Source: a virus. Taken from it: DNA of 64,000 nucleotides. The position numbers and the translations under genes are program-made. The notes under the pieces are model-generated. The model worked only from the letters and a program-made list of their open reading frames with translations, was not told the DNA's origin and made no database searches. Shown here piece by piece: positions 8,263-62,306 of this stretch (positions are counted from its first letter, which is position 1; the number at the start of each line of letters is the position of its first letter). Location of the stretch: positions 1-64,000 of IMG/VR virus record IMGVR_UViG_3300020390_000002; one strand, written 5' to 3'.

Positions 8263-8950
8263 GGCTTGGCCCCTTCCCCTGGGCCGAATGGGTGATGAGA
8301 TGGAGTAGCGCGTTGCCGGCGTTGATCTCGGCGAGGTCGTCGGTGAACGACTGCGTGCGCATGATCTTTTCGATGACGTCGGTGACCACGTGGGCGTCCT
8401 TGACGGGCACGCGGAACTTGATCGTCTGATGGGTGGGCGGTGCCGTGGGCTCCAGCGGCGCGGTCGTCACCGTGGTGGGCTCATCGGGGAAGCCGATGCT
8501 GTCCAGATCGATGTCGGTGGCGGCGAAGATCGCGTCCACATCGGTCATCTCGATCGGCAGCAGTTCCACCAGGGTGTCGGCGCCCAGCTCACGGAAGATG
8601 TCGGCAAGCAGCAGGCTGTCGTCGGTGCCGTAGCGGCCGTTGTCGATCAGCCCGATCTCCTTCGCCTGTGCGTCGTCGATCGGCCCCAGGTTGATGACCG
8701 GCACGCTGGCCAGACCCATGCGCTCGGCGACCTTGACGCGGTGCGCGCCGCCCAGGATTTCGAGCTGGCCGTCGGCACGCTCGCGCACCAGCACGGGCTT
8801 GAACATGCCGTTGCGACGGATGGACGCCTCGATCTTCACCTCGTTCTCGGGACCGACCACGTTCGGGTTCCACGGATTCGGGTGCAGCCGAGACGGATCG
8901 ATCTTGAGGATTTCGTGTGCGTCCAAAAAAGATTCTCCCAGGGGTTGCAT
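8255..8950 (-). CDS. ParB/Srx N-terminal domain protein
   Basis: LHPNPWNPN...GMFKPVLVRE...EILGGAHRVK; exact start uncertain. Confidence 0.88.
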   Translation of the reverse strand: MQPLGESFLDAHEILKIDPSRLHPNPWNPNVVGPENEVKIEASIRRNGMFKPVLVRERADGQLEILGGAHRVKVAERMGLASVPVINLGPIDDAQAKEIGLIDNGRYGTDDSLLLADIFRELGADTLVELLPIEMTDVDAIFAATDIDLDSIGFPDEPTTVTTAPLEPTAPPTHQTIKFRVPVKDAHVVTDVIEKIMRTQSFTDDLAEINAGNALLHLITHSAQGKGPSHE

Positions 8951-8973
8951 TTAAGTCAGTGCTGACTTACTAT
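8937..8973 (+). promoter_or_regulatory. Sigma70-like promoter with palindromic operator in spacer
   Basis: CCC-N5-TTGCAT-N17-TACTAT; TAAGTCAGTGCTGACTTA at 8952-8969, between divergent operons. Confidence 0.75.
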
Positions 8974-10696
8974 GACTGCACGTTTTATCACGAATGAGGC
9001 GCCACAGGCAACAGAAACCGTGAGCAGGATCATCCAAATAGCCCATAATGCGGTCAACGCGATGCTGGTTAAGCCAGACGAGGCCGTACAGCTAGAGGCT
9101 CAGCAGATGCTGAGCTATATGGTTGAGGGTGCAGAGCGTTCCGCGGCCTATCAGGCTGCCGAATGGGATGGTCGGTCGACGTTCTTCGACTTCCGCAACA
9201 ACGGTTTCCCCACTGGCTTCGTCGAGCTGGTCAAGCGTCGTCTGACCAAGCTCGGCTACGAGGTCAAGATCGTGCGCAAGCCCCTGCCGGCCGCGCTCGG
9301 CCCGACCCATCCGGTCGTTGACACGTTTGCGGTCGATCCCCGTTACGAGTATCAGCCGCGCACCGTGGATCTGCTGATCAAGCACGGCATGATGATCGCC
9401 CAGGTCGCCACCGGCGGCGGCAAGTCGCGCATCGCCAACCTGGCCACCGCGCGGATCAAGCGCCCCACCCTGTTCATCACCACCCGCTCGGTGCTCATGC
9501 ACCAGATGAAGGACGCCTTCGCGGCAGCCCTGAAGGTGCGGGCCGAGAACGGCGAGCCGGATCTGCGCAATGCCGAAGTTGGGGTCATGGGCGACAAGGA
9601 ATGGCGCCCGCGCGGCTATATCAACGTCGCGACCGTGCAGACCCTGGCCGCGCGGCTGCGCGAGCCCAATTTCGTGATCTCTTCGAAGAAGAAGGGCAAG
9701 GACGGCAAGCCGTTGAGCTCCGAAGAGCGCGAAGCCCTGGGCGTGGCGCAATACCGGCGCATGAAAAAGCGTCGCGAGGAGACCCTGCGGCTGCTGAGCC
9801 TGTTCCAGTTCGTGATCGCCGAGGAAGCCCATGAGGCCGGCGGCGACACCTTCTTCCAGATCATGCGCCACTGCACCCGCGCCCACTACCGGCTGGCGCT
9901 GACCGCGACGCCGTTCATGCGCGCGGACGCAGAATCGAACATGCGCCTGATGGCCTCCTGCGGGCCGATCGGCATCCGGATCACCGAGAAGCTGCTTATC
10001 GATCGCGGCATCCTCGCGACCCCGAGCTTTCGCACCATCGTGACCGGCTACGCGCCCGACAAGGACGCCCTCGCCCTCTACGAGAAACCCAAGCCCGGCA
10101 AGACGCGCATCTCGACGGTGCTGGGCAACACGTCCTCCTACCAGCGGGCCACCAAGCTCGGCATCGATTTCAACCTGGCGCGCAACCGCGCGATCGTCGG
10201 CGAGTGCGTGCGCGCGCGCCGCTACGGCCTGCCCGTGATCGTGCTCGTGAACCACACGGTCCACGGCAAGATCGTGCTGGCGATGCTGGAAGCGGCCGGC
10301 CTGAACGCGCAGTTCATCTGGGGCGACGACGACAGCGCTGCGCGCCGGGCTGCCCTGCTGGGCCTGGCCGGCGGCATGCTCGATGTCGTGATCGGCTCCA
10401 CGATCCTCGACGTGGGCGTCGATGTGCCCAGTGTCGGGATGATCATTCTGGCCGGCGGCGGCAAGGCTGAAGTGGCCCTGCGTCAGCGCATCGGCCGCGC
10501 GCTGCGCGAGAAGAAGGACGGCCGCCCCAATCGCGCCTTCATCGTCGACTTCGCCGACGACTTCAATATCCACCTGCGCCGGCACGCCATGACCCGACGC
10601 GCAATCGTCGCGGACACCCCCGGCTTCGTCGAGAACCAACTGCCTGTCGGGGCGGACTTCGACTTCACCGGCTTCGAATTACAGGAGATCGCATGA
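8972..10696 (+). CDS. SF2 DEAD/DEAH-like helicase
   Basis: ATGGGKS, variant motif II AEEAH, LTATP, DVGVDVP, QRIGRALR; true start may be GTG 9020. Confidence 0.92.
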   Translation: MTARFITNEAPQATETVSRIIQIAHNAVNAMLVKPDEAVQLEAQQMLSYMVEGAERSAAYQAAEWDGRSTFFDFRNNGFPTGFVELVKRRLTKLGYEVKIVRKPLPAALGPTHPVVDTFAVDPRYEYQPRTVDLLIKHGMMIAQVATGGGKSRIANLATARIKRPTLFITTRSVLMHQMKDAFAAALKVRAENGEPDLRNAEVGVMGDKEWRPRGYINVATVQTLAARLREPNFVISSKKKGKDGKPLSSEEREALGVAQYRRMKKRREETLRLLSLFQFVIAEEAHEAGGDTFFQIMRHCTRAHYRLALTATPFMRADAESNMRLMASCGPIGIRITEKLLIDRGILATPSFRTIVTGYAPDKDALALYEKPKPGKTRISTVLGNTSSYQRATKLGIDFNLARNRAIVGECVRARRYGLPVIVLVNHTVHGKIVLAMLEAAGLNAQFIWGDDDSAARRAALLGLAGGMLDVVIGSTILDVGVDVPSVGMIILAGGGKAEVALRQRIGRALREKKDGRPNRAFIVDFADDFNIHLRRHAMTRRAIVADTPGFVENQLPVGADFDFTGFELQEIA

Positions 10697-11232
10697 ACCT
10701 TGAGCCCATCGTGAAGACGTCGGCCGTCGCCGCGGCAAAGCGTCACAGCATCCCGTCCCCGCTGGTGCTGGCCATGATCGTGGTCGAGTCCGCCGGCAAC
10801 ACCTTCGCCACCCGCTTCGAGTCGCATTACCGCTACTGCTGGAACATGCGCTCGAATCAGCCGTTCACCGCCCGCGGCGTCGATGCCAGCGGCTCCACCG
10901 CGCCGTCCGGCTTCCCGGGCTTCGGCGGCATGTCCGCCAACACCGAGTGGGTCTTCCAGAAGACCAGCTGGGGCCTGCTGCAGCTCATGGGTGCCAACGC
11001 GCGCGCCTACGGCTTCCGCGAAGAGATGCCGCGGCTGTGCAAGATCGACCTGGGTCTGGAATACGGCTGTCTGCATCTGGCGCGCTGCCGCGACCGCTGG
11101 CTGAAGAGCAACGGCTGGGCCGGCGTGCTTGACGCCTACAACGACGGCAACGGCGCCATCGAATACAAGCGCGACTACCCACACAAGGTGGCGGAGGTGT
11201 CGATCGACGCCCGCGAGATTCTCGGCCTCTAG
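10693..11232 (+). CDS. SLT-family lytic transglycosylase / endolysin
   Basis: AMIVVESAGN catalytic Glu, SWGLLQLM, AYNDG. Confidence 0.85.
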   Translation: MNLEPIVKTSAVAAAKRHSIPSPLVLAMIVVESAGNTFATRFESHYRYCWNMRSNQPFTARGVDASGSTAPSGFPGFGGMSANTEWVFQKTSWGLLQLMGANARAYGFREEMPRLCKIDLGLEYGCLHLARCRDRWLKSNGWAGVLDAYNDGNGAIEYKRDYPHKVAEVSIDAREILGL

Positions 11233-11271
11233 TTCATCCACGCGCGCGAGCGCACAACCCAAGGAGACGAT

Positions 11272-11406
11272 ATGAAGAAAGCCCTGTCCGTCCTGGCCCT
11301 GATCGCAGTTCTGGCCCTGGCCGCCTGCAGCCAGCCGACCGAGGAAGACCTGAAGGACAACAACTTCGGCCAGATCCAGTCGGAAGAAACCGTCGTTATC
11401 TGCTGA
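11272..11406 (+). CDS. 44-aa lipoprotein (not in ORF track)
   Basis: AAGGAG RBS; MKKALSVLALIAVLALAAC lipobox. Confidence 0.75.
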   Translation: MKKALSVLALIAVLALAACSQPTEEDLKDNNFGQIQSEETVVIC

Positions 11407-12323: not shown

Positions 12324-12586
12324 TTCTGAATGCAATGATCCTGGTGGCGGTTCTGGTGGGCGTGGCGACCGGGCACCCGGAAGCGCTGCTCGGCGCGCTG
12401 ATGCTGATCCCGATGCCGCACCCCGACATCACCTACCTCACCGAAGAGGCAGGCGTCGATGACGATTACCAGGTGACCGACGCCACCGGCTTCATCGGCT
12501 TCATCGACACCAACGATTACGAGGACGACTGGGAGGAAGACGACATAACCCAGCCGAATGTTGCGCGAGACACTGCACTACTATAA
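12308..12586 (+). CDS. Small membrane protein with acidic tail
   Basis: Two hydrophobic segments followed by D/E-rich tail. Confidence 0.55.
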   Translation: MRGVLILNAMILVAVLVGVATGHPEALLGALMLIPMPHPDITYLTEEAGVDDDYQVTDATGFIGFIDTNDYEDDWEEDDITQPNVARDTALL

Positions 12587-12589
12587 AAT
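12553..12589 (+). promoter_or_regulatory. Sigma70-like promoter
   Basis: GCC-N5-TTGCGC-N17-TAAAAT. Confidence 0.7.
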
Positions 12590-12899: not shown

Positions 12900-12907
12900 C
12901 CCACGCA

Positions 12908-13828: not shown

Positions 13829-14032
13829 TCCATCCCCAGCACTGGATTTATCTTCACATTGCGCGATAATAGCTCAGTATTGAGCGAATAAATCCGATCG
13901 CGCGTCCTTATAGACGTTCGTATTAGATTCCTTCAATCAGCAAGTTATGGACGCTCGGTAAGCTCAATTTTAATTGTGTTAAAGCTGAAACTGCACACTT
14001 TCCGATAAATCACTAATAATGCAGGAGAACTG

Positions 14033-19099: not shown

Positions 19100-19241
19100 A
19101 CCCCTGGAAAAATACGGCGGCTGGGCGTAGCGATAGATGTATGCTACATCTAAGACTTTGCTTGTATGCTACACACAGTCATCCATCTGTATGTAGCGCG
19201 CATTCATGTGCTTGTGTGTTACATGCAGGAATGCAGTGCAC

Positions 19242-19275
19242 AAAAAAAGCGCGCTAGTCGTGAGACTAGCACGCT
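19242..19275 (-). terminator. Rho-independent terminator
   Basis: AGCGTGCTAGTC-TCAC-GACTAGCGCGC followed by T7 on minus strand. Confidence 0.85.
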
Positions 19276-19293
19276 GTGTGCTGCGCTCTACTA

Positions 19294-19560
19294 CTAGAGC
19301 GCTTCTAGTTCGAGCATGAGCATCTTGTGTGCACGGATCGCGCGCTGAGCGCGCTGGATCGCGTCCATGCTCATGCGATGCGTGCGCTTGTTCATGTAGC
19401 GAATCGAGCGCTTGCATGCGTCGATGAACGCGCGATCATCTGCGCGTCGCGATTCGCTGGATCGATTCGCGGAAAGCTTCAGATAAACGCGCATCGCGTC
19501 CACGTCCGCGCTATCGAATGCTTTATGTATTGCTTGCGGATTCATGCTGATTAGTTTCAT
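19294..19560 (-). CDS. Hypothetical basic protein with no Gly
   Basis: 88 aa; own promoter and terminator. Confidence 0.7.
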   Translation of the reverse strand: MKLISMNPQAIHKAFDSADVDAMRVYLKLSANRSSESRRADDRAFIDACKRSIRYMNKRTHRMSMDAIQRAQRAIRAHKMLMLELEAL

Positions 19561-19601
19561 TGTGCTGATTGTTTTAGTGTCATGCGATATTGCACGATTT
19601 A

Positions 19602-19638
19602 ATATTAGCACACTGTTTATGCTTGTGCGCATCTTGGC
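19602..19638 (-). promoter_or_regulatory. Promoter of the 88-aa gene
   Basis: GCC...TGnTAATAT; shares G(C/T)GCACAAGC...AGTGTG with the promoter at 20315-20342. Confidence 0.65.
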
Positions 19639-19653
19639 AAACTTTTTTTGCAC

Positions 19654-19682
19654 AAAAAAGCGCGCTCAAATGAGCGCGCTTT
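19654..19682 (-). terminator. Rho-independent terminator
   Basis: AGCGCGCTCA/TGAGCGCGCT hairpin plus T-run. Confidence 0.85.
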
Positions 19683-19698
19683 GTGACTCAGCGCTGAT

Positions 19699-20268
19699 TT
19701 ACTTATACAGCGCGACTAGAGCGACGATGAACGGATGCTTTCTGTCGAGCGTCCACGTGCGACGCTTCGCGTCTTTGTCCGTTTTCTGTTCCGTGACGCA
19801 TCCGAGCAGCTTCAGCATATTCATAAAGTAGATCGCTTGCGTGTCCGTCACGTGATTCATCTGCGCTTGAATCTCGCGATTGCTGAACGTTTTCTGACTA
19901 TGCTTCGCTTTGATATAGTGCAGTGCAGCGTCTGCTGCGTTGTCCTTCACGCTCGCGAGCGTCGCATTGACAGACAACGCTGTCATCATGCTTGTGAAGC
20001 GCTTCAGAAACTCGCGTGATTGACGCGCGACATGCGTCGGATTGATCGCGAAAGTCTCCATTGTCGCGAGCGCTTCATCGCTGCACTTTTCCATGCGTGC
20101 GATATACTGAGCATGCGTATCCGCAGTCTTTGCGAGCGCGTTGTCCTCCGGAGTCTGGAGCGCTGCATGCTTGTCGCGCGTCGCTTCGAACTCAGCGCGG
20201 ACACTTGCGAATGCTTCGCGAGCGTTCGAGACAAAAACGTTCGTGCTGTTGTTGTTCGTGCTATCCAT
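19699..20268 (-). CDS. Hypothetical protein, paralog of 30794-31357, putative C-terminal wHTH
   Basis: AAGGAAG RBS; shared ED..L.....THA, P..V...SREF.KR and H.T.TQA.Y......LG.V motifs. Confidence 0.8.
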   Translation of the reverse strand: MDSTNNNSTNVFVSNAREAFASVRAEFEATRDKHAALQTPEDNALAKTADTHAQYIARMEKCSDEALATMETFAINPTHVARQSREFLKRFTSMMTALSVNATLASVKDNAADAALHYIKAKHSQKTFSNREIQAQMNHVTDTQAIYFMNMLKLLGCVTEQKTDKDAKRRTWTLDRKHPFIVALVALYK

Positions 20269-20754
20269 GATCGTGCTTCCTTTGTAGTGTGCGTGGATGC
20301 TTTCCACAATTCAAACTATACACACTTTTTGCGCTTGTGCACGTTTTTCTGAAAAATATTTTGCATTGTTTTCTATCGTCGTTCGAAAAACGATAGTGCA
20401 AAACTATCGCTGTTCTATTCCTTCAAACACGCGCGAGCGCGCGCGAGTAGCACACTTTTCAAGATAGTGTCAATTTATTTTTGTAAATATTTTTCTTGCA
20501 CAATCCTGCAAAGCATGATCCAGATTCCTGCGCGCGTGCTCATAGTCCGCGCGCGGCGTCAACGATCGGCAGTGATTTATTTTCGCTGCGTGATACAGCG
20601 ATTTTCGTGTAGGATGCACGCATAATAGTTGTACTATACATGCACAATAGCTGCACTATGCAGACGATTTTCGGCGGCACGGCGGATGGCACGGCCTGGC
20701 GTGCGGCGAACGGCAGGCGCCGCGGCACGGCCCTTGGCCACAGCGCCGCGGGCA

Positions 20755-21196: not shown

Positions 21197-21288
21197 GGGT
21201 TTTCTCGTTGTGCGTCAGTCCTAGCGCTGACGTAGATCATTATCGAATCCAGCACACGGCACTCCAACGATCGGCGATCATTCACCAC

Positions 21289-22357: not shown

Positions 22358-22792
22358 AGCTCTTTTCGTTGTTATCAGCGATTGTGCTGACAACTGAATA
22401 ATAGCTCAGCGCTGACTTAATGCACAGCAACGGCGAAAATTATTTTCGATTCACCAGGAGCGTGCAGTCGTATCCAGCCATGGCTGTGTCCAGCGTGCCG
22501 CGGCAGCACGGCACTTCGACACACGGCACGCGGCACTTTTGCTTCCCCGAAACAGTCGAAAACGGCTGTATTGGCACAAAACAGCCATGGGGAGCGAGCC
22601 ATGGCTGCCCGGTCGTCATGGGGAGTAAGCCATGGTCAGCCATGGCGTGCCGCACCCGTATCTGCCATGGCGACCCGGTCGCCACGGGGCTCGGTCTTGA
22701 TCTGAGCCGCCTTATATCTATGGCCGTGGTGAAACGCCAAGGCGGCTGCCTTATATAAATAGGCCCCGTCGTTCACCAACGGGGCCTGGGGC

Positions 22793-23158: not shown

Positions 23159-23281
23159 GGCAGTGTCCTGTTGAGTCGTCGCTGTTTGCGACAGTTCTAT
23201 TGTTGTGCAGGCTCCGCGGCACGCAAACACTCGGGGCACGGCTTATGCGCGTGCCCCTGTGGCCGGGAATCGAGGAACCGT

Positions 23282-24075: not shown

Positions 24076-24544
24076 GTATTCGTCCTCGTTTTGGAGATTC
24101 CATTATTTGTCAGGCTTCCTGGCGCATAAACACTCGGCAGCAGGCGTTTTCTCAAGCCCCGAAAAATCCGACCCGGGGAAAAAGACGCTCGAAGGCGCAG
24201 ATAACTGCCGTGGCGTCCCCGCCGCGGCTTTATCCCACAAGGCATCCGCCGCGGTCGTACAACAAAGCCCGTGGTTCGATCCCGTGGGGCGCCTGCCGTG
24301 GCAGTTCCTTCACCGTTGCCGTTGCTTTCAACGCCGTCTGCCGTGCGATAAGATGAATCGAGCGTATTTGGACCCTGACCGAGCGCTCGCCACCCTGCCC
24401 CGTCCATCCCCGCCTCGAGCCACCCTTTGATAACCCTGGCCGTATCCCTTTGACCCGTGGCCCCGTATCCCGTGGGGTTGCCGCGGCGCTCTATCCACAA
24501 AAGACAGGCCCGGCATGGTGTCCGGGCCTGTGGCGCTATACGTT

Positions 24545-24769: not shown

Positions 24770-25462
24770 GGCTTGGTCCTTTGGAGTTAAGTCAGTGCTG
24801 AGTGAAGTTTGATTATGCAGAAGGCGAATCAGGCGCGCAAGCGCTGGGAGCGGGGTTTTTGCCCAAGGGTTTCCGGGGCGCCGGAAATATATGCCGTGGC
24901 AGCACGCTGTAACCTAGCGGCACGGTCCTTTCCCCTTCACCCAGCGCTAAGCCCCACGACCCTAGCCCTATGCGCCAAGCGTTAGGAACCTACACTCAGC
25001 GCTGAGCAATCCGGGGACGGTCTCCTTTATGCCTGTACTCGAGGGACCTATGGCCTATGGGGGAGTAACCGTGTCTGTTTGTGCTATGGGAGTGACGCGC
25101 TGAGAGCGTCTCTAAGACACGGGAGTGCTTATCCTGTATGCGTGTACGTCTCTATGGACGATCGCAGCGGGAAGGAGCGCTGGATGCGCTGGAATGACGT
25201 GGTTCGTGGATGCTATATCGCTGTTTGCATCGCGCATAGGTCAGAGCGTGCTGCTTTGCGTATCGATCCGGGGGTTTGTCAACGATCCGGGCCTGGGCTT
25301 TCTGTGTGTCTTTCGCTTGGCGTTTGCGGGATTTTGTGCGTTGACGGGTGGTTGGGTTTTGTGGCGCTTGTTTGCGGGTTCGCGTGATCTGGATTTGACC
25401 GGGATTCAATCGTTTAGCATTTTGCGGTTATAACGTGCGGTATAAGGCTGGGGCTGTGGGGG

Positions 25463-26286: not shown

Positions 26287-26320
26287 GTGCTGAGTCCGTG
26301 TTGTTTTCGAGATTCCAGTA

Positions 26321-26692
26321 TCAGTCCGGGTCCGCGGGGCTTCCAGCAACGGCGCGCGGCTTGACGAAGAGCACCTGCGCGAACCCCTGCATGCGAAACT
26401 CGCTCAGGTCGATACCGAGCGCCTTGGATTCCAGCTCACCCGGCCAGAAGCCGCTCCAGCGCGAGAAGGCGGGGTCGTGATCCTCGCAGGCACACTGCAG
26501 CCGCTGATCGCCACAGGAGGAGCACCGCTCAATGTCGCAGCCGTCTTGATGCGGTTGGCCGGCGGACACGCCGCAGTCGTAGCAGTTCGGGAGCTCGGTG
26601 CCCTGCTCTTCCTCGCACAGGCATTCCGATTCGTATTCGCCGCAGAACTCGCAGTGGTTCTCGACGTAGGAACCGTCGTATTCGCCGCTCAT
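26321..26692 (-). CDS. Cys-rich zinc-binding hypothetical protein
   Basis: Multiple CxxC; CYDCGV..GQPH..GCDIERC. Confidence 0.7.
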
Positions 26693-27847: not shown

Positions 27848-27876
27848 TGCAGTCCCTTGTTATTGCTGTAGTTTTA

Positions 27877-30126
27877 TTATCCGCAACGCTGCGCGGGGCT
27901 GCGAGCGATGGCAGCGGGGATCGTCGGATCAGCCGCGCGCGCTTGCCGCAGCAGCGCCAGCGCTTTGCGGCGGACGTATTCCGGCAGCGGGTGCTTCGCC
28001 CGGGTGGTGACCTCGCCGAGCCTGTCCACGGTGTAGGTGTCCACGCGGGTGATGTCGGCGGGACCGAAGTAGCCGCAGCGCAGGAACTGGACGATCACCC
28101 GCTCGGATGTGACGGCCGATGCCTGCCAGTGGCTCGCTTTGTTGGCGCCCAGGATCAGCGCGCTCATCCGATCTCACCCAGCAAACTCAGCGGCATCCGC
28201 AGGCGTTTCGCATAGTTGATCCGGCCGCACAACGACTGGAACAGCAGCGACACCAGGTCTGCGTTGCCTCGCGCATGAATGTCCAGAAACCATTGGCCGC
28301 TCAATAGCCCGACCAACTCCGCCAACGTGACCAGCTGCAACCCGCCAGCGAGTTCAGCCAGCCGTTGGACGACCTGGCCCAGATGCACATCTTCGAGGTC
28401 GCATTCGAGCTTTTCTGCCCAGACCTTCATGGCGCTGGATTCACGCTCACTCGCCGCCATCGCGGTGCAGGCGAGCTGTAGCAGCCTGACATCGTGGTCG
28501 TCGAGCGTGACCGAATGCTCACACAGGTCGGTGAAGGTGCGAGTACGACTCATGGCTACTGCACCGCCTCGAGCGCGGCATCGAAGATGCGGTCGCTCGA
28601 GCCGTCGGGGCGGACGCCGTAATCGCTGATCGCGTCTTCGCCGTTGCCCAGGATGAAGCAGGCCCACAAATGGTCGCCAGACTTGTTGCGGAATCGGATC
28701 GTCGCCATGTCGACCGCATCCACGGCCTCCACCATCTCGGTTCGAGTCGGCGTCCGGACAATCTCGTCGTCGCCGTAGTCTACCTCGAGAGGCGCGAAAC
28801 CTTCCTTGTCGGCCTCTTCGATATAGGCATTGAGCAGCGTGCGTTCGATGAAGTTCATGGCTACACCTCGATGTAGTGGATGGATTCTTCCCAGGGCGTA
28901 GCCACGTTCGGGATATAGTTCGTGCCGCCCCGGCTGTGCGGATAGACCGTGCCGTCTTCGGCAATCTCGACCAGATCCCCAGGCTCGTAGATTTCGGGCA
29001 CGGTCTCCTGGTGATAGGGGCGCGGCTCGAAGCGCTCGTTGTATTGCGCTAGCGCTTCGTCGAGCCACTTGCGATAGGCGATCATGAAGGCGCGGTTCAT
29101 GACTGTGCCGCCAGTTCTGGGTCACGCTCGAAGTGTTTTGCACCGTTGAACGTGCCGGGTGGGAATTGATCGCGTCTCGCCAGCAGCAGCACGGTCATCA
29201 GGGCCGCATACCAGCTCTCGTCGTGCGGCTTGTCCTGCTTGGGCAGCGCCGGATAGAAGCGATAGGGGTTGGTGTAGTCGATCATCGTGGCGATCGACGC
29301 CAGTGCGTGTTCATCCACGATCTTCGCCAGGCGCGACACGACATACATGCGGCGCACGTCCTCGACCGGCATGCCACAGCGCTCAGCCCAGAGCTTTCTG
29401 GCATAGGGCCAGCTGTCGCCGACATCGGACTTCGCCAGCATGATCAGGCGCACGTCCCATTGGTCCAGGGGCGGCGTGAAACGAGCCGGCCCGATCGTGG
29501 ATGACCAGAGTTTCATGCCGCTCATGAGTTTGACTCCCGCTGTGCCTTGACCCAATCCACGTAGCCGCGCCGCGTGTCGTTGTTCGTGACTTCGAGCTGC
29601 CAGTCCTCGACCGAGAACTCCGGGTCCTCGCCCCAGGGGTTGACCTCCGGCTCCGGCTCGATCTCGTAGGTGTCGTAGGGGTCACCCACCGCCTCGTGCG
29701 TTTCGCTCGGCGGGCAGGACTTGAGGTCGCGCAGGCGCGCCTCGAGTCCGTTGAGAATCGCTCGCGCTGAGGCGGTCTTGGGGTCCAGACTCTCGACCGA
29801 GAAGCCGATCTGATAGGCGTGGTTGTATTTCTTCATGGCTACTCTTCCTCCGCGGGGTCATTTGTCATATACACCGCTTCCACTTCGTCGTTGTCGCGGG
29901 CTTTTTGCGTGACCACGTAGCCCACGCAATTGACCCAGTGATAGCGGGGCACCGCATATAGGGAGCCGTCGTCCGTGCCGTCGACGACGGTCCAGACTCG
30001 GTCGATCGGGTAGGTTTCGACGAGCGCCCGATCGTTGGTGCATAGATCGCCGCCAACCTCTATCGGCTGATAGTCATCCCAGAATTCGTCTTCGGTAATA
30101 AGCGTTGGTTCGGGGAGGGTCTTCAT
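27877..30126 (-). CDS. Operon of hypothetical ORFs: 27877-28167, 28164-28553, 28556-28858, 28861-29100, 29097-29525, 29522-29836, 29839-30126
   Basis: Tightly coupled with RBSs; promoter and operator at 30157-30193. Confidence 0.65.
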
Positions 30127-30199
30127 GTGCTGAGTCCGTTTTGTTGATCTGCTTAAAGCATGTCAGCGCTGACTTGGCTTTGCGCGCGAAGGTGCGCGG

Positions 30200-30684: not shown

Positions 30685-30721
30685 ATTATGTCAGCGCTGA
30701 CTTATGCCTGCAATAGCTGGC
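30685..30721 (-). promoter_or_regulatory. Promoter with operator in spacer
   Basis: GCC-N5-TTGCAG-N17-CATAAT; palindrome at 30687-30704. Confidence 0.8.
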
Positions 30722-30793: not shown

Positions 30794-31357
30794 TCAGGCG
30801 GCGACTGCCTCCTTGCCCTTCTCGGCGATCGAAGCCATCGCCGGATTGTCGTAGTCGAAGGTCATCGTGGTCTCGATACCCTGGCCCCGGACGCTGGAGA
30901 CGCCGCCGAGTTCCATGAAGAAGGTCTTGATGTAGTTCGCCTGGGTCGCCGTCTTGTGCCCGGTGACGCGCATGATCTTGGCGTAGTCCAGCGTCGCCGG
31001 CTTCTTCGCCTCGATCAGCTCGATCACTGCGCGCAGCGGCTTGTCCGCCACCGCCTGCCGGAGACCCTTCGCGAACGCCACGATCGCCAAGCGCTTCTTG
31101 AACTCGCGCGAACCGGCTTCGACCTTCACCGGGTCGAGGTTGTTGCTCTCGCACCAGCCGATCGCATCGTCCGGCAGCTTGAACAGCACCTCCGCCATCT
31201 TCGCGTGGGTCTTGCTGGCGGATACGAGCTTCGCATCCTCCATGTCGCCGTGCGCCTCGAAGCGCGCCTGGGCTTCCTTCGCCGTGTTCAGACGACTCTT
31301 GATGGCGTCCTTCATGACCTTGCGGAACTTGGTGGTGTATTCATTCTTCTGCGTCAT
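30794..31357 (-). CDS. Hypothetical protein, paralog of 19699-20268
   Basis: GAGG RBS; terminator hairpin at 30766-30787. Confidence 0.8.
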   Translation of the reverse strand: MTQKNEYTTKFRKVMKDAIKSRLNTAKEAQARFEAHGDMEDAKLVSASKTHAKMAEVLFKLPDDAIGWCESNNLDPVKVEAGSREFKKRLAIVAFAKGLRQAVADKPLRAVIELIEAKKPATLDYAKIMRVTGHKTATQANYIKTFFMELGGVSSVRGQGIETTMTFDYDNPAMASIAEKGKEAVAA

Positions 31358-31674
31358 GGTGTTACCTCTCATGCTGTGTGTGAATTGACACTTTCGTGCC
31401 TGTTTTTCTATGTCGCTTATTTCCCTGCGACAACTATAGTTTCGTGGAGGCGACGCGGCTGCGCAATAGATTTTTACGGCTAATTTCAACGCCTTGCGAT
31501 TTCACCACAAGAAAGGCAAAGCGAGGCGTTGCGTCGAATCCAGCGCTCCATGCTCGGATATGTCTTATCTTTTGCCGTCGCTTAGAAGCGCTCACACGCG
31601 CTCGCCCTGCGAAGACGATACGACGCGCTCAGTGCATCCGCGCATCGGACAGAACCGCGGCTGAAGCCGGATAC

Positions 31675-32072: not shown

Positions 32073-32238
32073 GTCGTCCTCTCGTTGTTTTAGCGACGAT
32101 TAAAGTATGTCAGCGCTGACTTACTACCTGCAACACTTTTTTACGGCTTACGCGAGATCGCCAGGCGCTCCAGAAAACTGATCGCAATCCAGGCGACACC
32201 CGCGAGGCAGACGGCGAGGACGATGATGCCGATGACGC

Positions 32239-33142: not shown

Positions 33143-33226
33143 GGTGTTATTCCGTTGTCGTCGCGATTTGCGACAGGATCAGTACTGAGTCGGGGCGTGG
33201 CGTTGATAGCGATGGCAATCCGTCGC

Positions 33227-33676: not shown

Positions 33677-33742
33677 GGCGTGCTCCTTTGTTCTTGATCG
33701 GATCATTATTGGATCGGGTCCGCGGCACTTATAGCGATGGCG

Positions 33743-35250: not shown

Positions 35251-35321
35251 GTGGGTGTCCTGTTGTTTCGATAATTCATTGTCGCGCTAAGTCAGCGGTG
35301 ACTACAGAATCGGCGCGCGGC

Positions 35322-36881: not shown

Positions 36882-36945
36882 ATTGTTGTAACCTCCTGTT
36901 AAGTCAGCGTTTACTTATTATTTCAGACGCAAAGCGGCTGTTCGA

Positions 36946-37350
36946 CTACAGGTCCTGGGACGCCATTATCGTGACCACTACCTCGCCCTCGTCGCCGGGG
37001 CCGACGTTCACGAACACGCGGTTAAGCTCAATCTCCTGGTCCGGATACCTCAGCGCCGGAACCTCGAACTCCAGGTCGCCTGAAACCGGCTTGTCCCTGG
37101 TCGCAAGCATGTGGCGCATGGCCTCATGCAGCAGTATGTATTCGCGCGCGGTCTCGTAGCCCAGGCGTTCCATCGGCTCCTCGCTCGGCCAGGCGACGTT
37201 CTCGTTCCAGCAGTTGATGGCGATTGCCACCGGCACCTTGAAGCCCATCGCAGCGGCGCCATCGGTGACGTCTTTCAGGACGCCATCCTCGAGGGCTTGC
37301 GCCCTAGAGTAGGTGAAGATCGGCTCGCCGAAGATGTCGTCCATGCTCAT
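36946..37350 (-). CDS. Hypothetical protein (DUF6573-like)
   Basis: YSRAQALEDGVL.DV...GPGDEGE.VVTIM. Confidence 0.7.
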   Translation of the reverse strand: MSMDDIFGEPIFTYSRAQALEDGVLKDVTDGAAAMGFKVPVAIAINCWNENVAWPSEEPMERLGYETAREYILLHEAMRHMLATRDKPVSGDLEFEVPALRYPDQEIELNRVFVNVGPGDEGEVVVTIMASQDL

Positions 37351-38151: not shown

Positions 38152-38188
38152 ATTATGTGCGATCCGATACGGCATGACAATAGCTGGG
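38152..38188 (-). promoter_or_regulatory. Promoter with downstream operator (38121-38138)
   Basis: CCC-N5-TTGTCA-N17-CATAAT. Confidence 0.8.
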
Positions 38189-38693: not shown

Positions 38694-38849
38694 GTGGCCC
38701 CCTATGCTGTGAATGGACGATTTATTAGATAACGTCCGCAGCGGCGCGTCTATATTCGGCAGAGGCCAGGCATAAAAAAGCCGGCCCCATAAGGGCCGGC
38801 AATCACACTACTCAGCACGAGTAGAGAATAGCCGCTGTCAGCGTGCGCT

Positions 38850-40885: not shown

Positions 40886-40958
40886 ATTTTTCTCCTTTGT
40901 GCTGTGTAGTAGACTGATTTTGTTGGATTAGAAGCGGCTGATCACGCTTAGGTGACGG

Positions 40959-41564: not shown

Positions 41565-41654
41565 GTATTCCCTCCTTGAGGTCAGCGCTGAACCCCTATT
41601 GACTCAGCGCTGACTTATCATTTTAGACGAAAGCAAACGGTTTGCAAGCCCTGG

Positions 41655-42050
41655 CTAGTAGCTGCCGCTGGCACCACCACCGCCGAAGTCGCCACCGCCG
41701 CCGGAGAAGCTGCTGCCGCCCGCATCGTGGCCGCCCCAGCCGAAGCCATCGCCACCCATGCCGAAGCCCATGCCGGCCCCGTACAGGCTGGCTGAGCGCA
41801 TCTCCTCGTCTTCATCGTCGAGCCGCCGGCGGCGCGCTCGTTCGGCCTCGCGGTGCCGGCGCTCCGATTCCTCGACGATGCGCCGCGCCGTCCAGCCATC
41901 GGTGATGCTGTCCTCGTCGTCGGCTTCGTCCAGCTCCGGGGTGTCGGTATAGCGCGCGTGAACTTCGTCCAGGCGGTCGTCCATGAAGGCCGCCAGCCGC
42001 TCTTCCCGACGCCGCGCGTAGAGTGCTTTGATCCGGGCGATTATGCCCAT
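41655..42050 (-). CDS. Hypothetical protein with Gly-rich tail
   Basis: FSGGGGDFGGGGASGSY. Confidence 0.7.
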   Translation of the reverse strand: MGIIARIKALYARRREERLAAFMDDRLDEVHARYTDTPELDEADDEDSITDGWTARRIVEESERRHREAERARRRRLDDEDEEMRSASLYGAGMGFGMGGDGFGWGGHDAGGSSFSGGGGDFGGGGASGSY

Positions 42051-44338: not shown

Positions 44339-44420
44339 TTCGTCTCCTGCGTGTTGCGTTGGAGTTATTGTTGAATCGGGCAGACGGGCACGCACGCATC
44401 GGCGCACGTGCCCCTTGCTG

Positions 44421-46575: not shown

Positions 46576-47586
46576 CTACCAATCGAGCGCGCCGCTCAGG
46601 TAGCCGGTGACCTTCCCTTCGAAGAAATTCTCCGACGTGCCGTCGACGCGGCTGTAGTCGTCAAACCAGGCCACCGGGCTCCGCGTGCCGTAGAGTGTGC
46701 CCAGGCCGATCGAATTGGCGCGCAGGTCGGCCAGATTCTCGACATGGGCACGGCAGACGCGGTCATTCATGCCGGGCACGCCGCCCTGCACGAAGTAGGC
46801 GCCCCACTCGGCTTCCATATCGACGGCATTGCGCAGGATCTGGCGCGCGTCCTCCAGCAGCTCGGCCGTGAACAGCTCCGGGCGCTCGCGCTGGATCGCA
46901 TACCAGATGTTCACGAACAGCTCGAGGTGGGTCACCTCGTCGCGCTGGATGAACTTCACCATCTTGGCGCTGCCCTGCATCTTGCCCATGCGAGCCAGGG
47001 TGTAGAACAGCAGGAAGCCGTTGTAGAAGTAGATGCCTTCCAGCGCGATGTTGGCCACGACCGCGCGCACGAAGTTCGCCGCGGAGTAGTCCTCGCCCAG
47101 GATGCGCGACTGCTTGAGGATCGCCGCGTTCTTGGCAGCCAGCATGCCGTCGCGCTCGAACATGAAATAGACCTCGGTGGGCTCGAAACCCATCGACTCG
47201 ATCATGTGCGCGTAGGACTCGACGTGCATCGCCTCTTCCCACGCCTGGCGCACGAGGCACTGATTGATCTCCGGCGACGTGATGTGCTGGTTGATGTTGT
47301 TCGTGAGGTTGTTGAGCTGGATGCCGTCGAGGTTGCTCAGCGCGGCCAGGACGCACTTGTAGGCGCGCTGCTCACCTTCGGACAGGTCGCCGTTGATCCA
47401 TTGCTTCTGATCTTCGCCGAGCGGCGCTTCTTCCTCGGTCCAGTGGTTGTTGCGCATCTTCTTGAGCATGTCGCGGGCGAACTGATGGCGCACCGGACGC
47501 ACGCACATGAGCTCAGACCGTTCGCCCTCAATCACGCGCCGCGCGTTGATCACTTCGGCCGGCGTTGGGATTCTTCCTTCTGTCAT
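46576..47586 (-). CDS. nrdB: Ribonucleotide reductase class Ia beta subunit
   Basis: EEAMHVESY, LEGIYFYNGF, RDEVTH, NFFE. Confidence 0.95.
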   Translation of the reverse strand: MTEGRIPTPAEVINARRVIEGERSELMCVRPVRHQFARDMLKKMRNNHWTEEEAPLGEDQKQWINGDLSEGEQRAYKCVLAALSNLDGIQLNNLTNNINQHITSPEINQCLVRQAWEEAMHVESYAHMIESMGFEPTEVYFMFERDGMLAAKNAAILKQSRILGEDYSAANFVRAVVANIALEGIYFYNGFLLFYTLARMGKMQGSAKMVKFIQRDEVTHLELFVNIWYAIQRERPELFTAELLEDARQILRNAVDMEAEWGAYFVQGGVPGMNDRVCRAHVENLADLRANSIGLGTLYGTRSPVAWFDDYSRVDGTSENFFEGKVTGYLSGALDW

Positions 47587-48242
47587 TGATTGAACCTTCC
47601 TTTGTTGGTTAGATGTTTATGCAGGGGCTCCGTGACTGCCCTCTCTTCGGTCCAGCCCTTCTTGAGCCGACTACGGATTGTTTCCGGCTTAACGCCCAGG
47701 CGCTCAGCCCATTGATTGATCGAAAGGGATAGGTCTCCACAGGCGATCAGGGCCGGGATTCTCCCGTTGCGACGTCGATTGTTCGCCTGCTCCTTGTATG
47801 TCGCCCATCGACAGTTTCCGGGTTCGTAATTGCCCTCGTTATTGGATCGCTCGATCGTTAGTCCGGGTGGCCTTTCGCCCATGTCGGCTAGAAAGTTTTC
47901 GAACGAGTGCCACCGCTCGCACACTCGAATCCCACGCCCTCCATAGCGGCAAAAACTCTTGTTCTTCGGGTTCCGACAGCGTTCGAGCATCCCGAACCAG
48001 ATCGTGTACGTGGAAGTGCCGTAGTAGCCGTGCTTCGTTGCCTTCTCCCTCGAGACGTCGCCGCGCAGGCAGCCGCACGATTGAGTCTCTCCGGATCGCA
48101 GCCTTTTACCCTCGACCTTTGCGGTCGAGCCGCAATCACAGCGACACAGCCAAAGCGCCTTACCGTCGCTCGTGCTGCCGGAGCGTTCGGCCACCAAGAG
48201 GCGGCCGAAGCGCTCGCCAGTAATATCTATCGTGCGGGACAG
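47583..48242 (-). CDS. Free-standing HNH homing endonuclease
   Basis: DITGERFGRLLV...WLCRCDCG...SCGC...YGGRGIRVCERW...ER.NN.GNYEPGNCRWAT; probable CTG start at 48242. Confidence 0.88.
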   Translation of the reverse strand: MSRTIDITGERFGRLLVAERSGSTSDGKALWLCRCDCGSTAKVEGKRLRSGETQSCGCLRGDVSREKATKHGYYGTSTYTIWFGMLERCRNPKNKSFCRYGGRGIRVCERWHSFENFLADMGERPPGLTIERSNNEGNYEPGNCRWATYKEQANNRRRNGRIPALIACGDLSLSINQWAERLGVKPETIRSRLKKGWTEERAVTEPLHKHLTNKGRFNQ

Positions 48243-48754: not shown

Positions 48755-48939
48755 ACTGATGTCCTCCTGTGTTTTGCGTGCTCTTATAGTATGTAAGTCA
48801 CTGTTGACTTAGCATCTTTCGGCGGATATTCGCCTGAACTGAAAAGGAGGGGCGCCGTAGCGCCCCTAATGGTTGAATCTCGCTGTGCCCTTTGATCCAG
48901 CGTTAAGTCAATACTGACTTACTTTCTGGAAGAAAGCAA

Positions 48940-51285: not shown

Positions 51286-51362
51286 TGGGTCTCCTGTGTG
51301 GGATTAGGGGGTTCGAATCCGGCGGGGCCGGGATTATAGCATAGTCAGCGCTGACTTATTTT

Positions 51363-51782
51363 CTACCAACTTCCGCGCAGCGGATCGTCGGCGGGCGCCG
51401 CTTCCACGCCCAGCTCCTCGTCGAGGGTCAGCTCACGCTCGGGTGGCACGTTGATCTTGCGGGGCGGTATGCGCTCTGCAGGCAGCAGCAAGCTGGGTAT
51501 TTCGCGGGCCGTGTAGACGCAGCCCTGCTTCGGCGATCGGGTGCAGCTGTTTCGCATGCTGAAGACGCGGTCGAAGGTCGCGTTGCCTTCCTCCTCGAAC
51601 CGGATCGACCGATACGGGCACCCTGCGCACGACGGGTGCATCTCGGCCTCGCAGCCGCGAGTCAGCTCCTCCTGAGCCCACGCCTCTATGCGCCCGGTGG
51701 GCATCATTTCAGCCATGTGGCGGTCGAGGGAGATGTAGTTCTTCATGACCCGGCCGATCAGCTGCTCGCGAATGTCACTCAT
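51363..51782 (-). CDS. Hypothetical protein with C-terminal RGSW
   Basis: ATG overlaps ruvC stop. Confidence 0.65.
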   Translation of the reverse strand: MSDIREQLIGRVMKNYISLDRHMAEMMPTGRIEAWAQEELTRGCEAEMHPSCAGCPYRSIRFEEEGNATFDRVFSMRNSCTRSPKQGCVYTAREIPSLLLPAERIPPRKINVPPERELTLDEELGVEAAPADDPLRGSW

Positions 51783-56828: not shown

Positions 56829-56864
56829 ATGATAAGTCAGCGCTGAGTTATGTCAATAGACGGC
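56829..56864 (-). promoter_or_regulatory. Promoter with operator filling the spacer
   Basis: GCC-N5-TTGACA-N16-TATCAT; palindrome at 56833-56850. Confidence 0.85.
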
Positions 56865-58117: not shown

Positions 58118-58254
58118 GCGTGTTCTCCATGTTTTCTGATATGAAAATGATATGCGCACAGAAGCGGCGAAGCACGCAATGGCGAAATGCCACGAGGAGA
58201 TTCGCCGCTGTCGCGCGGATAAACTCCGCTCAGGGTAAAAATCGAGGGAAAAAA

Positions 58255-58573: not shown

Positions 58574-58587
58574 ATCGGACAGTGCAT

Positions 58588-58616
58588 AAAAAGCGGGCCA
58601 TCGGCCCGCTTTTTTT
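58588..58616. terminator. Bidirectional terminator
   Basis: AAAAAGCGGGCC-ATC-GGCCCGCTTTTTT. Confidence 0.9.
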
Positions 58617-58637
58617 ATGCCTGCGATCCGCGAGCGG

Positions 58638-59660: not shown

Positions 59661-59669
59661 GGTGCCTCC

Positions 59670-60602
59670 TTATCGGGAAAAGCGTTCGGCCCAGAGGTCG
59701 AACTTTTGGAGAATCGATTGGAAATTCAGCTCACGACACAGGCGCTCGAAGGCGTCCATGTCGGGCTTGGGGTTGCCCACCTGCAGCTGTAGCCCGGTCG
59801 GGTCCGTTTGCAGGTTCATCAGCTTGAAGTTGCGCTTGAACACGTCCAGGCGCCCGACATGCTCATGCTTCGGACAGGGCTTGTTCTCGGCGAGGTCGCG
59901 GTAGGGCTTGGGAATCTTCTGGCCAGCCAGTTCGCCGCCGTTGTACGCCTTCACGAAGGCCGGCACCGAGCCAAACTCCGCCAGGAGCTCCGCGGCCTTC
60001 TGCTCACCGAGCATGCCGACCGGATGAATGTTGTCCGAGTTGTCACCCTGCAGCGCCTTGCCCTGCAGGAAGGCAGCCGGCGTGGCGTATCCGGTGAGAT
60101 CGAGAAAGGTCTCGTGGTGGACGAACTTGTAGTTGTCGTCGCGGGCATTCATCCAGGCGCAATTCGGGCGCACCAGCTGAATCCAGTCGCGGTCGCCGGT
60201 GACCAGGATCACGCCATTGTTCGGCTTGGCCAGCAGTCGCCGCGCGAGCACGCCGGCGAGATCGTCGGCCTCCTGGCCCGGATCGTAGATGGCGCCGACA
60301 CCCAGCGTCTCGCAGACGCGCTTGATGTCGTCCTTCTGGTCACGGAATGCGGCCCGCATCTTGGCGATCTTCGGGTCCATCTCCCGCTTTTCCTTGTATT
60401 GCGGGTAGAGGTCGTAGCGCCACTGGCTATGCCCGTCCCAGAGAACGATGATGCGTGCGTGGGGCTTTTCGCCGATCAGGAAGTTCAGCTTCTTGGCGAA
60501 GCCGAAGATCGCCTGCACCTCGCGATTGCCGACCGTCAGTCGGGCTGACTGCTGTGCGGCGTATCCGACCGAGTGCGCGTCGATAAGGTATGTCGTTTTC
60601 AT
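59670..60602 (-). CDS. 5'-3' exonuclease (Pol I N-terminal / RNase H type)
   Basis: LIDA, WDG, YK..R, EADD, TGDRDW.QL, GDNSDNI. Confidence 0.92.
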   Translation of the reverse strand: MKTTYLIDAHSVGYAAQQSARLTVGNREVQAIFGFAKKLNFLIGEKPHARIIVLWDGHSQWRYDLYPQYKEKREMDPKIAKMRAAFRDQKDDIKRVCETLGVGAIYDPGQEADDLAGVLARRLLAKPNNGVILVTGDRDWIQLVRPNCAWMNARDDNYKFVHHETFLDLTGYATPAAFLQGKALQGDNSDNIHPVGMLGEQKAAELLAEFGSVPAFVKAYNGGELAGQKIPKPYRDLAENKPCPKHEHVGRLDVFKRNFKLMNLQTDPTGLQLQVGNPKPDMDAFERLCRELNFQSILQKFDLWAERFSR

Positions 60603-60672
60603 TCTTGCCCCTCTAGGAAGCAGGGCCGGATTAACCGGCCCTGCGGGTTGCGCCTTGTGTCCGCGACCGGGC

Positions 60673-61659
60673 TTACGAGCCCAGCGCGTCCAGCTCGGCC
60701 ATCAGGGCATCCACGTCCTCGTCGTCCGAGCTGGCCGCAGCCTGGACCGGGTTCGCGGCCGGAGCAGCAGCCGGAGCAGCAGCCGGAGCAGCAGCCGGAG
60801 CCGGGGCAGCAGCCGGGGCCGGAGCCGGGGCAGCAGCGGCCGGAGCGGCGGGCTCCGACTCGGTGAAGTCGGCATCGCTGACGTCACTGAGGTCTTCGTC
60901 GAGGCTGATTTCACTCAGACTCGGCGCCTTCGCAGCGGCAGGAGCGTGCGTCAGAGCGCCCGCGCCCGTCGAAGCCGTCACCAGACCGCGCGTTGCGTTG
61001 ACCACGCCCAGCGCCTTCTGCAGACCCGCCTCGTATTCCTGATCGACGTACTCGTCGAGGTTGGTCACCTTGTCCATGATCGACGGATCGATCGCGGTGG
61101 ACTTGACGGCCACGTTGACGGTGTATTTCGTGCTCAGGCCGGTGCCGTCGCGTTCGATCATCACGTCATAGCCTTCGGCGAAGTCGAAGATATTGACGCC
61201 TTCGTCGTAGTAGTTCTTGGCGACGTTGCAGAACTGCTCGAACACGGTCATCGGCATTTCCAGCACGACCGGCGTGTTCGGCTCGGAACCATCACGACGC
61301 AGCGCGTTGACCAGCATGCGCGGGGTGGCCTTGCTCGCTTCCAGCGCCTTGATCGTGGCGTCGTCGTGCGCGTCACGGATGCCCTCGCTGATCAGCTCGC
61401 ACACCCGGCACGGACGGCCATAGGTGGCCTCTGCGCAGATGTAGACGGCCTTGACCTCGTCGCTGCCCGGCGCCTTCAGGAAGTGAACGCCGTAGCCGTG
61501 GAAGAACGGCTGCTCTTCACCATTCGGGCCTTTCGGGCGCCAGGACGGAAGCACGCGATAGCGCGACTTGCCCGGCGTGATCTTGGCCGTGCGCTCACGG
61601 CGGCCCGAGCGGGCCTGCGCCTGCTTCTGCGCGGCATTAAGAATGTCCAACATGCTCAT
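60673..61659 (-). CDS. gp32-like single-stranded DNA-binding protein
   Basis: RVLPSW, HF, C...YGRPC.VC, R.GTGL.TKY; (PAAA)n linker at about 60759-60845; acidic tail. Confidence 0.8.
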   Translation of the reverse strand: MSMLDILNAAQKQAQARSGRRERTAKITPGKSRYRVLPSWRPKGPNGEEQPFFHGYGVHFLKAPGSDEVKAVYICAEATYGRPCRVCELISEGIRDAHDDATIKALEASKATPRMLVNALRRDGSEPNTPVVLEMPMTVFEQFCNVAKNYYDEGVNIFDFAEGYDVMIERDGTGLSTKYTVNVAVKSTAIDPSIMDKVTNLDEYVDQEYEAGLQKALGVVNATRGLVTASTGAGALTHAPAAAKAPSLSEISLDEDLSDVSDADFTESEPAAPAAAAPAPAPAAAPAPAAAPAAAPAAAPAANPVQAAASSDDEDVDALMAELDALGS

Positions 61660-61722
61660 AGATAGGTTCCTCTTAGTTGTGCAGTCGTAAATGTAAGTCA
61701 GTGGTGATTTATTACTGCGATG

Positions 61723-62235
61723 TTAATGTTCTCGTCCAACCTGGCCTGCGATTCGGGTTGCCTCGTCACGAGCCGAGCCGCCTGAACCCGTTGTTCCGCT
61801 AACGGTGACACGGGCCTGGCCCTTCATTTCTTCGAGCTGACGCTTACCGACCTGCACGAGCATGTCGCGACGCTGCTTGAAGGCTTCGAGCGCGTTACGG
61901 GCCATTTCCGCGATCATGCGCGAGTCATTGGCCAGCTTCGCTGCCTGGATATAGTCGGGGTGCAGGATGATCCGCTCCTCGACCATGTTCTCCGTCACTT
62001 TCTTGCCGCCCTCCGCGGCATCCTCGCGCACCGCATGGGCGACACGCGCGCGCACGTGGGTCATGTGCGTCTTGAACCGATCCGCCTGATGCTGCGCCTG
62101 CGCGTAAATGTTCCCGTAGTAGGAATACAGCGACGCCTGCTGCATCATGGCCGTGTCGATGTCCACGTCCGAAAAAGCGACCTGCTCCTTGAGCTTCGCA
62201 GGGTCGATGAACTTCTTGAAAACAGGAGCGGTCAT
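61723..62235 (-). CDS. UvsY-like recombination mediator
   Basis: Helical; KVTENMVEE.I..HPDY...EAFKQRRDML. Confidence 0.6.
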   Translation of the reverse strand: MTAPVFKKFIDPAKLKEQVAFSDVDIDTAMMQQASLYSYYGNIYAQAQHQADRFKTHMTHVRARVAHAVREDAAEGGKKVTENMVEERIILHPDYIQAAKLANDSRMIAEMARNALEAFKQRRDMLVQVGKRQLEEMKGQARVTVSGTTGSGGSARDEATRIAGQVGREH

Positions 62236-62263
62236 AGAATTTTGTCCTCTTTCTGATGAATGA

Positions 62264-62306
62264 ACTATAGTCGTCGCTGAGTAGAAAGTCAATCAGCGGT
62301 GACTTA
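62264..62306 (-). promoter_or_regulatory. Promoter with overlapping operator
   Basis: ACC-N5-TTGACT-N17-TATAGT; palindrome at 62289-62306. Confidence 0.8.

Follow-up and report, generated by a model that had tools for sequence, protein, structure and literature searches.

The window studied here is the first 64 kb (positions 1 to 64,000) of IMGVR_UViG_3300020390_000002, a 91,335-bp contig of an uncultured phage of the 110 kb size class, with a GC content of 62% and an estimated completeness of 83%. Its large terminase is 58–64% identical to those of Salmonella phage SSU5, Klebsiella phage-plasmids, Pseudomonas phage nickie and Rhizobium phage RHEph10, and about 40 proteins are held in common with nickie, RHEph10 and SSU5, in a conserved gene order. 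The genes, called with a self-trained codon model, include those for portal, terminase, ribonucleotide reductase, thymidylate synthase, an SbcCD-like nuclease, RtcB, a tyrosine recombinase and two ParB_N proteins, and most of those between 19 and 91 kb lie on the minus strand. The element in question is a trinucleotide, VCC (V being A, C or G), found at a constant place in many predicted promoters of this phage. With the final T of the -10 hexamer set at -7 relative to the expected transcription start, this distal box occupies positions -43 to -41.

An initial annotation of the window had listed 21 sites running from VCC to a -10-like hexamer, and all 21 coordinate pairs do start with [ACG]CC and end in such a hexamer on the strand given. 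These sites occupy short gaps 5' of called genes and, in nearly all of them, the -7 base sits 27–47 nt ahead of the start codon, as expected for real promoters with short leaders. A -35-anchored catalogue of the whole contig holds 34 recognisable promoters (Table 1), with VCC at -43 to -41 in 27 of them. The box is present in all 17 promoters with a weak -35 and a second, proximal box (type B), in 6/8 of those with an 18-bp palindrome in the spacer overlapping the -10 (type A), in both plus-strand sites, in one of the two promoters of a block otherwise free of VCC/GGB, and in one of the five with the palindrome upstream of the -35 (type C). When the palindrome-upstream group is excluded, C is found at -42 in 27/29 promoters and at -41 in 26/29, with an information content of 1.3–1.5 bits per C; position -43 is G, A or C (17, 6 and 6 cases) and never T (0/29), and a purine follows at -40 in 25/29. 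Within the -35 hexamer, T at -35 (22/29) and G at -33 (21/29) are kept while the other bases are uninformative, and the proximal VCC lies at -28 to -26 in 15 of the 17 weak -35 promoters. Four sites with a 16-nt spacer retain five bases between the VCC box and TTG, indicating that the box belongs to the module on the -35 side.

Table 1. Promoters and promoter-like sites in the window (A, operator in spacer; B, two boxes, VCC at -43..-41 and in most at -28..-26; C, palindrome upstream of the -35; EM, expectation-maximization motif discovery; unlisted, not in the initial annotation)
Position	Strand	Description	Recovery
1738..1774	-	Type C, 5' of portal gene; palindrome centre -41.5, no VCC	
3780..3815	-	Type C, 5' of small and large terminase genes; palindrome centre -41.5, no VCC	
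8937..8973	+	Type A, VCC at -43..-41	EM
12553..12589	+	Promoter-like, VCC, within 3' end of upstream gene	Outside EM input
13834..13870	+	Promoter-like, VCC	
19602..19638	-	In VCC/GGB-free block; its GCC is the sole such site in 19124-20555	
20315..20350	-	Second promoter of VCC-free block, no VCC; spacer dyad in common with 19602-19638	
21239..21275	-	Type B	EM
22398..22434	-	Type A, VCC; followed by 231 nt without VCC/GGB	
23199..23235	-	Type B	EM
24102..24138	-	Type B, unlisted	EM
24812..24848	-	Type B, proximal box one base off	EM
26317..26353	-	Type B	Outside EM input (gap <40 nt), independent instance
27876..27912	-	Type B	Outside EM input, independent instance
30157..30193	-	Type A, VCC	EM
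30685..30721	-	Type A, VCC	EM
32104..32140	-	Type A, A-tract where VCC would be	
33181..33216	-	Type B, 16-nt spacer	
33705..33741	-	Type B	EM
35278..35314	-	Type B, unlisted	EM
36917..36953	-	Type B, VCC within last codons of upstream gene	EM
38152..38188	-	Type B	EM and generic sigma-70 scan
38724..38760	-	Type B, 3' of intrinsic terminator	EM
40917..40953	-	Type B	EM
41620..41655	-	Type B, 16-nt spacer, unlisted; VCC overlaps upstream stop codon	EM
44367..44403	-	Type B	EM
48786..48822	-	Type A, no VCC at the fixed place	
51333..51369	-	Palindrome-adjacent, no VCC	
56829..56864	-	Type A, 16-nt spacer; VCC overlaps upstream stop codon	
58147..58183	-	Type B, unlisted	EM
62264..62300	-	Type C; ACC belongs to palindrome variant centred at -40.5	

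The single promoter class proposed initially does not hold, since promoters with near-consensus -35 and -10 hexamers and a spacer operator also carry the box, as does one of the two promoters in the VCC-free early block. The four promoters named at the outset as exceptions (20315, 31433, 32104 and 51333) do lack it. At two of these, 31433-31480 and 32104-32140, the upstream AGCCG box is kept and a run of five or six A, which resembles a proximal UP subsite, replaces the GC-rich stretch ending in VCC.

Motif discovery blind to the alignment of the initial annotation yielded the same layout. With 55 strand-aware upstream regions as input, the dominant palindrome being masked, a 45-column EM search returned CC, four weak columns, cTTG, four weak columns, gcCGc and AtAAT; this places CC at -42/-41, TTG at -35 to -33, a GCC(G) box at -28 to -25 (CCG at -27 to -25) and ATAAT at -11 to -7. 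The GCCGCG-like element noted earlier is supported and assigned to -28 to -25. Twelve of the listed sites were recovered and unlisted ones were added, four within the window (Table 1) and two beyond it, at 68216-68252 (ACC at the predicted place) and 76024-76059 (GCC, 16-nt spacer). In a rerun in which the columns upstream of -36 were unscored, C was found at -42 in 24/33 sites (P=5.9e-8) and at -41 in 18/33 (P=7e-4), with T at -43 in 1/33. The EM sites have A at -11 in 31/33 cases and T at -7 in 28/33, as in sigma-70-type -10 elements. A scan of 19–39 kb with a generic sigma-70 consensus found 4 sites versus 6.1 in shuffles, in agreement with the initial remark that many -35 boxes are poor.

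A test free of any motif model compared intergenic gene-oriented ANAAT sequences (n=33) with coding ones (n=138). CC at -42 accompanied 11/33 of the former versus 13/138 of the latter (Fisher P=1.2e-3), and CC at -27 accompanied 11/33 versus 9/138 (P=1.4e-4). A smaller CC peak lies at -49/-48, and offsets -47 to -45 and -40 count zero or one. Such a sharp peak with near-empty flanking offsets indicates a positioned box rather than a step in composition. The distal VCC box is real and non-random; it is a selected box, fixed in position as initially claimed.

The conservation is also independent of sequence ancestry. Identity among the promoters in non-conserved columns is 28% (random being about 26%), and after collapsing of similar sequences 16 clusters remain, 12 of them all-VCC (P<=1.3e-7), so recent duplication is ruled out. 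A composition step was likewise dismissed, the profile of CC over offsets being a peak. Neither a hairpin nor a terminator is at play, as DNA folds of -62 to -21 give a mean z of -0.76 with inconsistent pairing of the box, and a tie to the upstream stop codon or to translation was rejected because the distance to the stop varies between -34 and +775 nt. A TAG stop codon is overlapped by the box three times, and elsewhere the box lies within the last codons of the upstream gene; its retention despite such overlap points to selection on the box itself. A degenerate half-site of the palindrome was likewise set aside, only G and C at -43/-42 plus TTG coinciding in a comparison by eye.

The strongest upstream motif of the phage is this 18-bp palindrome, which carries an A-rich 5' flank. 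It has 33 copies at <=5 mismatches, 32 of them outside called genes and one in a doubtful 24-codon open reading frame, spread over 1764-62306 of the window and up to 84909 of the contig (for example at 8952-8969, 30687-30704 and 56833-56850). Three geometries were distinguished: in the spacer, overlapping the -10, with the centre at about -17 to -20; just 3' of the -10, before the ribosome site; and, for the portal (1738), terminase (3780) and tail gene (84866) promoters, which have no VCC box, with the centre at -41.5. This arrangement fits a single dimeric palindrome-binding regulator that would repress early units and activate late ones. The central asymmetric variant of the palindrome almost invariably points the same way with respect to the gene.

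Several AGTCAG..CTGACT copies were also seen on bacterial contigs with a related terminase from a Methylocystis metagenome-assembled genome, Chitinibacter and Faunimonas, so that the operator system extends to elements in alpha- and betaproteobacterial genomes. The cultured Rhizobium phage RHEph10 has a dispersed palindrome of its own with a GTCAAT|ATTGAC core (at least 29 intergenic sites) and is without the GCGC-centred form. The contig also has a plus-strand island, at 70380-73371, in which several copies of the palindrome accompany genes for a 509-aa tyrosine recombinase and for a conserved protein of 133 aa that matches no assigned family; lysogeny or plasmid maintenance may be controlled from this region.

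The palindrome search led to five related contigs (G001-G005) that are about 70% identical to this phage in conserved genes. No relative above about 72% nucleotide identity in conserved genes turned up in viral contigs scanned with protein seeds, in viral and metagenome contigs searched for the exact palindrome, in species genomes searched with the large terminase or in viral contigs searched for an exact 32-mer. A position weight matrix of the VCC promoter type has 28 matches in the phage, 23 of them intergenic, versus 0–5 per relative genome, mostly coding. In G001 and G004 a CCCG box at -28 to -25 is followed by eight bases and a GCTATAA -10. The main promoter motif of these two genomes comprises an A-rich CCCGA box, eight bases and GCTATAA, its -10 matching the Caulobacter-type consensus, and GCTATA in G001 has 15 intergenic gene-oriented sites versus 3 coding. 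G002 displays another regulatory grammar, with tandem 8-bp repeats of the AATTCGC/AATTAGC type immediately 5' of many start codons.

The same pipeline applied to nickie (EM and an ANAAT-anchored profile) revealed GCC boxes at -38/-37 and -28/-27. Both phages thus combine a normal -10 with two upstream VCC boxes, the proximal GCC lying at -28 to -26 in each and the distal box being followed by a purine and GC, and their core genes and gene order are common. They differ in that the distal box of nickie stands at -38/-37 as part of a 10-bp repeat without TTG, whereas here it stands at -43 to -41 in a 15-bp repeat flanking a residual -35 TTG, and here it is also found alone on operator-controlled promoters. 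A spacing of one helical turn (10 bp) is not seen among the promoters of the present phage, which show 15 bp. The proximal box is thus co-positioned in nickie, G001, G004 and the present phage, and the GCC at -28 to -26 is the element common to the phage family; the distal box is lineage-specific, having moved in nickie and being missing in the nearest relatives. A literature search returned no paper describing these motifs or the promoters of this phage group.

The VCC/GGB trinucleotide occurs about 11,000 times in 91 kb. In the 1.4 kb of 19124-20555 there is a single occurrence versus about 85 expected, and this one is the GCC at -43 to -41 of promoter 19602-19638 (chance of coincidence about 1e-3). 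All 23 CC of this block are TCC and 12/13 GG are GGA, a tolerance of TCC/GGA only that matches the absence of T at -43. That the sole tolerated copy is the promoter box ties promoter function to this sequence avoidance. Blocks nearly free of CC/GG at about 50% GC exist in related genomes too (G004, 8250-9000; G001, 94.9-97.0 kb), and G004 has a gene of about 206 codons without any CC or GG, whose product is devoid of Gly, Pro and Trp. The two promoters of the block in the window, 19602-19638 and 20315-20350, have in common a spacer dyad of GCACA, 11 bases and TGTGC that differs from the genome-wide palindrome, which suggests a separate operator for the earliest genes.

As to a protein that might read the boxes, no match to region 2 of the sigma-70 family was found in the available 83% of the genome, nor any six-frame match to MotCF or AsiA at E<=1. 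A phage sigma factor was considered and set aside, as the weak region-4 matches fall in HNH homing endonucleases. Codon-usage gene calling missed two free-standing genes for HNH homing endonucleases that have helix-turn-helix tails (47583-48197 and 63486-63899, the latter adjoining DnaE-like genes). With neither sigma factor, MotA nor AsiA found, host polymerase plus a further factor is the economical model. Two early paralogues, encoded at 19699-20268 and 30794-31357, have in a structure model a C-terminal helix-strand-helix-helix-strand-strand topology reminiscent of a winged helix. The first lies inside the VCC-free block and has a homologue in nickie; the 187-aa protein of the second is recorded on four contigs, the longest of 109,498 bp. 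A Foldseek structure search of the early paralogue gave no match at E<=0.001, the best neighbours being winged-helix regulators at non-significant scores, and the predicted fold hints tentatively at these paralogues as candidate readers of the boxes.

Altogether, we favour the view that VCC is the lineage-specific distal box of a promoter type of this phage family, read by a DNA-binding factor and superimposed on the separate palindrome control, and we put its probability at roughly one half. VCC at -43 to -41 would then be a functional upstream box of early and middle promoters that use a host sigma-70-type -10 (ATAAT, with A at -11 and T at -7). From upstream, the proposed modules would be a weak A-rich tract at about -57 to -50, a weak GCCG box near -50, the distal VCC with a purine next to it, always five bases before the -35 TTG, and then either the proximal GCC(G) at -28 to -25 on weak -35 promoters or the 18-bp palindrome overlapping spacer and -10. 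A weak -35 with a second GCC box is the architecture expected of factor-dependent promoters. Given the shifted box of related phages, the GCC boxes are probably read by a DNA-binding protein; the co-positioning of the proximal box in nickie and the nearest relatives suggests that this factor is phage-encoded and common to the group, and it would aid host RNA polymerase where the -35 is poor. The distal box would be this lineage's version of a second contact, set 15 rather than 10 bp away from the proximal box. We infer promoter function for the sites, binding of a protein to the boxes and an activating effect of this binding.

Several observations weigh against this view. The -10 assignments rest on sequence and the constant distance to the start codon, and the distal box is missing in the five nearest relatives, leaving no phylogenetic footprint. 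With a repeat of 15 bp, the two boxes face opposite sides of the helix, an uncommon arrangement for tandem binding. The winged-helix lead has a Foldseek E >0.2 and a model with a mean predicted local distance difference test score of 70, and a phage sigma factor could sit in the 17% of the genome absent from the contig. The box also stands on promoters with good -35 and -10 hexamers and on one in a block seemingly designed for first expression, before any phage protein is made; for such promoters a host factor or the polymerase itself fits better than a phage activator.

Reading of the box by the host itself, through a constitutive DNA-binding protein or through RNA polymerase (by way of an extended -35 or an atypical contact upstream), would require no phage protein; it is a serious rival, though we consider it unlikely. 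In its favour are the near-consensus promoters with the box (6/8 of the operator-in-spacer type), the possibly first-expressed promoter of the VCC-free block, the fixed distance from box to -35 TTG and the two promoters whose A-tract at the box position resembles a proximal UP subsite. However, G001, G004 and G002, phages of other alphaproteobacteria, have no such box, while a Pseudomonas phage of the same group does have GCC boxes, so that the trait tracks the phage lineage and not the host class. Nor does a G/C trinucleotide resemble known sites of the C-terminal domain of the polymerase alpha subunit (alpha-CTD); the alpha-CTD contact suggested initially is disfavoured by the same mismatch with the UP-element subsite, and by the A-tract that two promoters hold in that place.

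Alternatively, the box could bind a regulator that does not activate, such as a repressor, an insulator between packed units or a switch closing early and middle promoters late in infection. Its distribution, on early and middle promoters and not ahead of the portal, terminase and tail genes, would suit this, as would its frequent position within a few bases of the upstream stop codon. We nevertheless regard such a role as improbable: the weak -35 in 17/17 two-box promoters is more in keeping with compensation than with repression, and a separate and far stronger operator, the palindrome, already overlaps these promoters.

More doubtful still is that VCC/GGB is the target of a sequence-specific DNA modification, with promoter activity depending on the mark at -42/-41. 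The same trinucleotide class does define both the promoter box, with never a T at -43, and the avoidance in 19124-20555, and relatives too have CC/GG-free blocks. Against this, no modification enzyme is recognisable, the operon at 5.4-8.9 kb giving matches to ParB_N and ABC-ATPase only, and the analysis yielded no support for the mark-dependent promoters of the initial annotation; the sheer number of VCC/GGB in the contig would make the mark a bulk hypermodification; the avoidance is equally explained by evasion of a host nuclease or by a mutational process; and there is no box at 20315, the other promoter in the block. Equally remote is a broader form of the idea, in which VCC/GGB on double-stranded DNA is read by a phage or host system (base modification, or a VCC-reading protein or nuclease), the first-expressed genes being purged and promoters keeping exactly one copy at -43 to -41 as a mark- or reader-dependent switch between incoming virion and replicated DNA. 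Least probable, and already disfavoured, is a CC without function of its own, inherited via duplicated promoter cassettes or reflecting the step from GC-rich coding sequence to an AT-richer core: some promoter pairs are visibly related (23199/24102, 41620/76024, 26317/33705) and many boxes abut the upstream gene, but the random-level identity outside conserved columns, an enrichment that survives clustering, the sharp CC peak with empty flanking offsets, the lack of a consistent hairpin and the same layout at 26317 and 27876, outside the EM input, all speak against it.

Knowledge of factor-dependent phage promoters comes from a few model phages, and to our knowledge no transcription programme has been described for the large SSU5/nickie/RHEph10 group, which includes phage-plasmids spreading resistance genes in enterobacteria. 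With its proximal GCC box conserved and its distal box movable, the promoter type offers a concrete, testable grammar for this group and a way to look for the reading protein. Among known systems, UP elements are A/T-tract alpha-CTD sites at -38 to -59; here too there are elements upstream of the -35, including the weak A-rich tract, but the box is G/C with C nearly invariant at -42 and -41 and an A-tract in its place at two promoters. In class II promoters of the CRP/FNR type a dimer site is centred at -41.5. The position of the VCC box is similar, as is the palindrome centred at -41.5 at 1738, 3780 and 84866; since CC is not its own complement and no dyad about -41.5 exists in the VCC region, the box itself is not a class II site. 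Promoters dependent on lambda CII carry TTGC-N6-TTGC direct repeats straddling the -35, and the present ones likewise have short repeated boxes on both sides of a poor -35, although boxes and spacing are different and no CII-like protein was identified in this phage. At promoters of the PhoB/OmpR type, direct repeats replace the -35 and winged-helix activators touch sigma region 4. Direct repeats upstream of a good -10 are a common trait, and the early proteins described above might conceivably supply a winged-helix family, but the repeat of Pho boxes is 11 bp and keeps to one face of the helix, whereas here it is 15 bp, with no receiver domain. Finally, T4 middle promoters combine a MotA box at -30 with a sigma-70 -10 and work through sigma appropriation by MotA and AsiA. 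The phage studied here differs in having two boxes (-43 to -41 and -28 to -25) of another sequence, a partly retained TTG and no detectable MotCF or AsiA; what the two have in common is a host -10, a -35 that is poor or missing and, in the region of the spacer and -35, a box specific to the phage.

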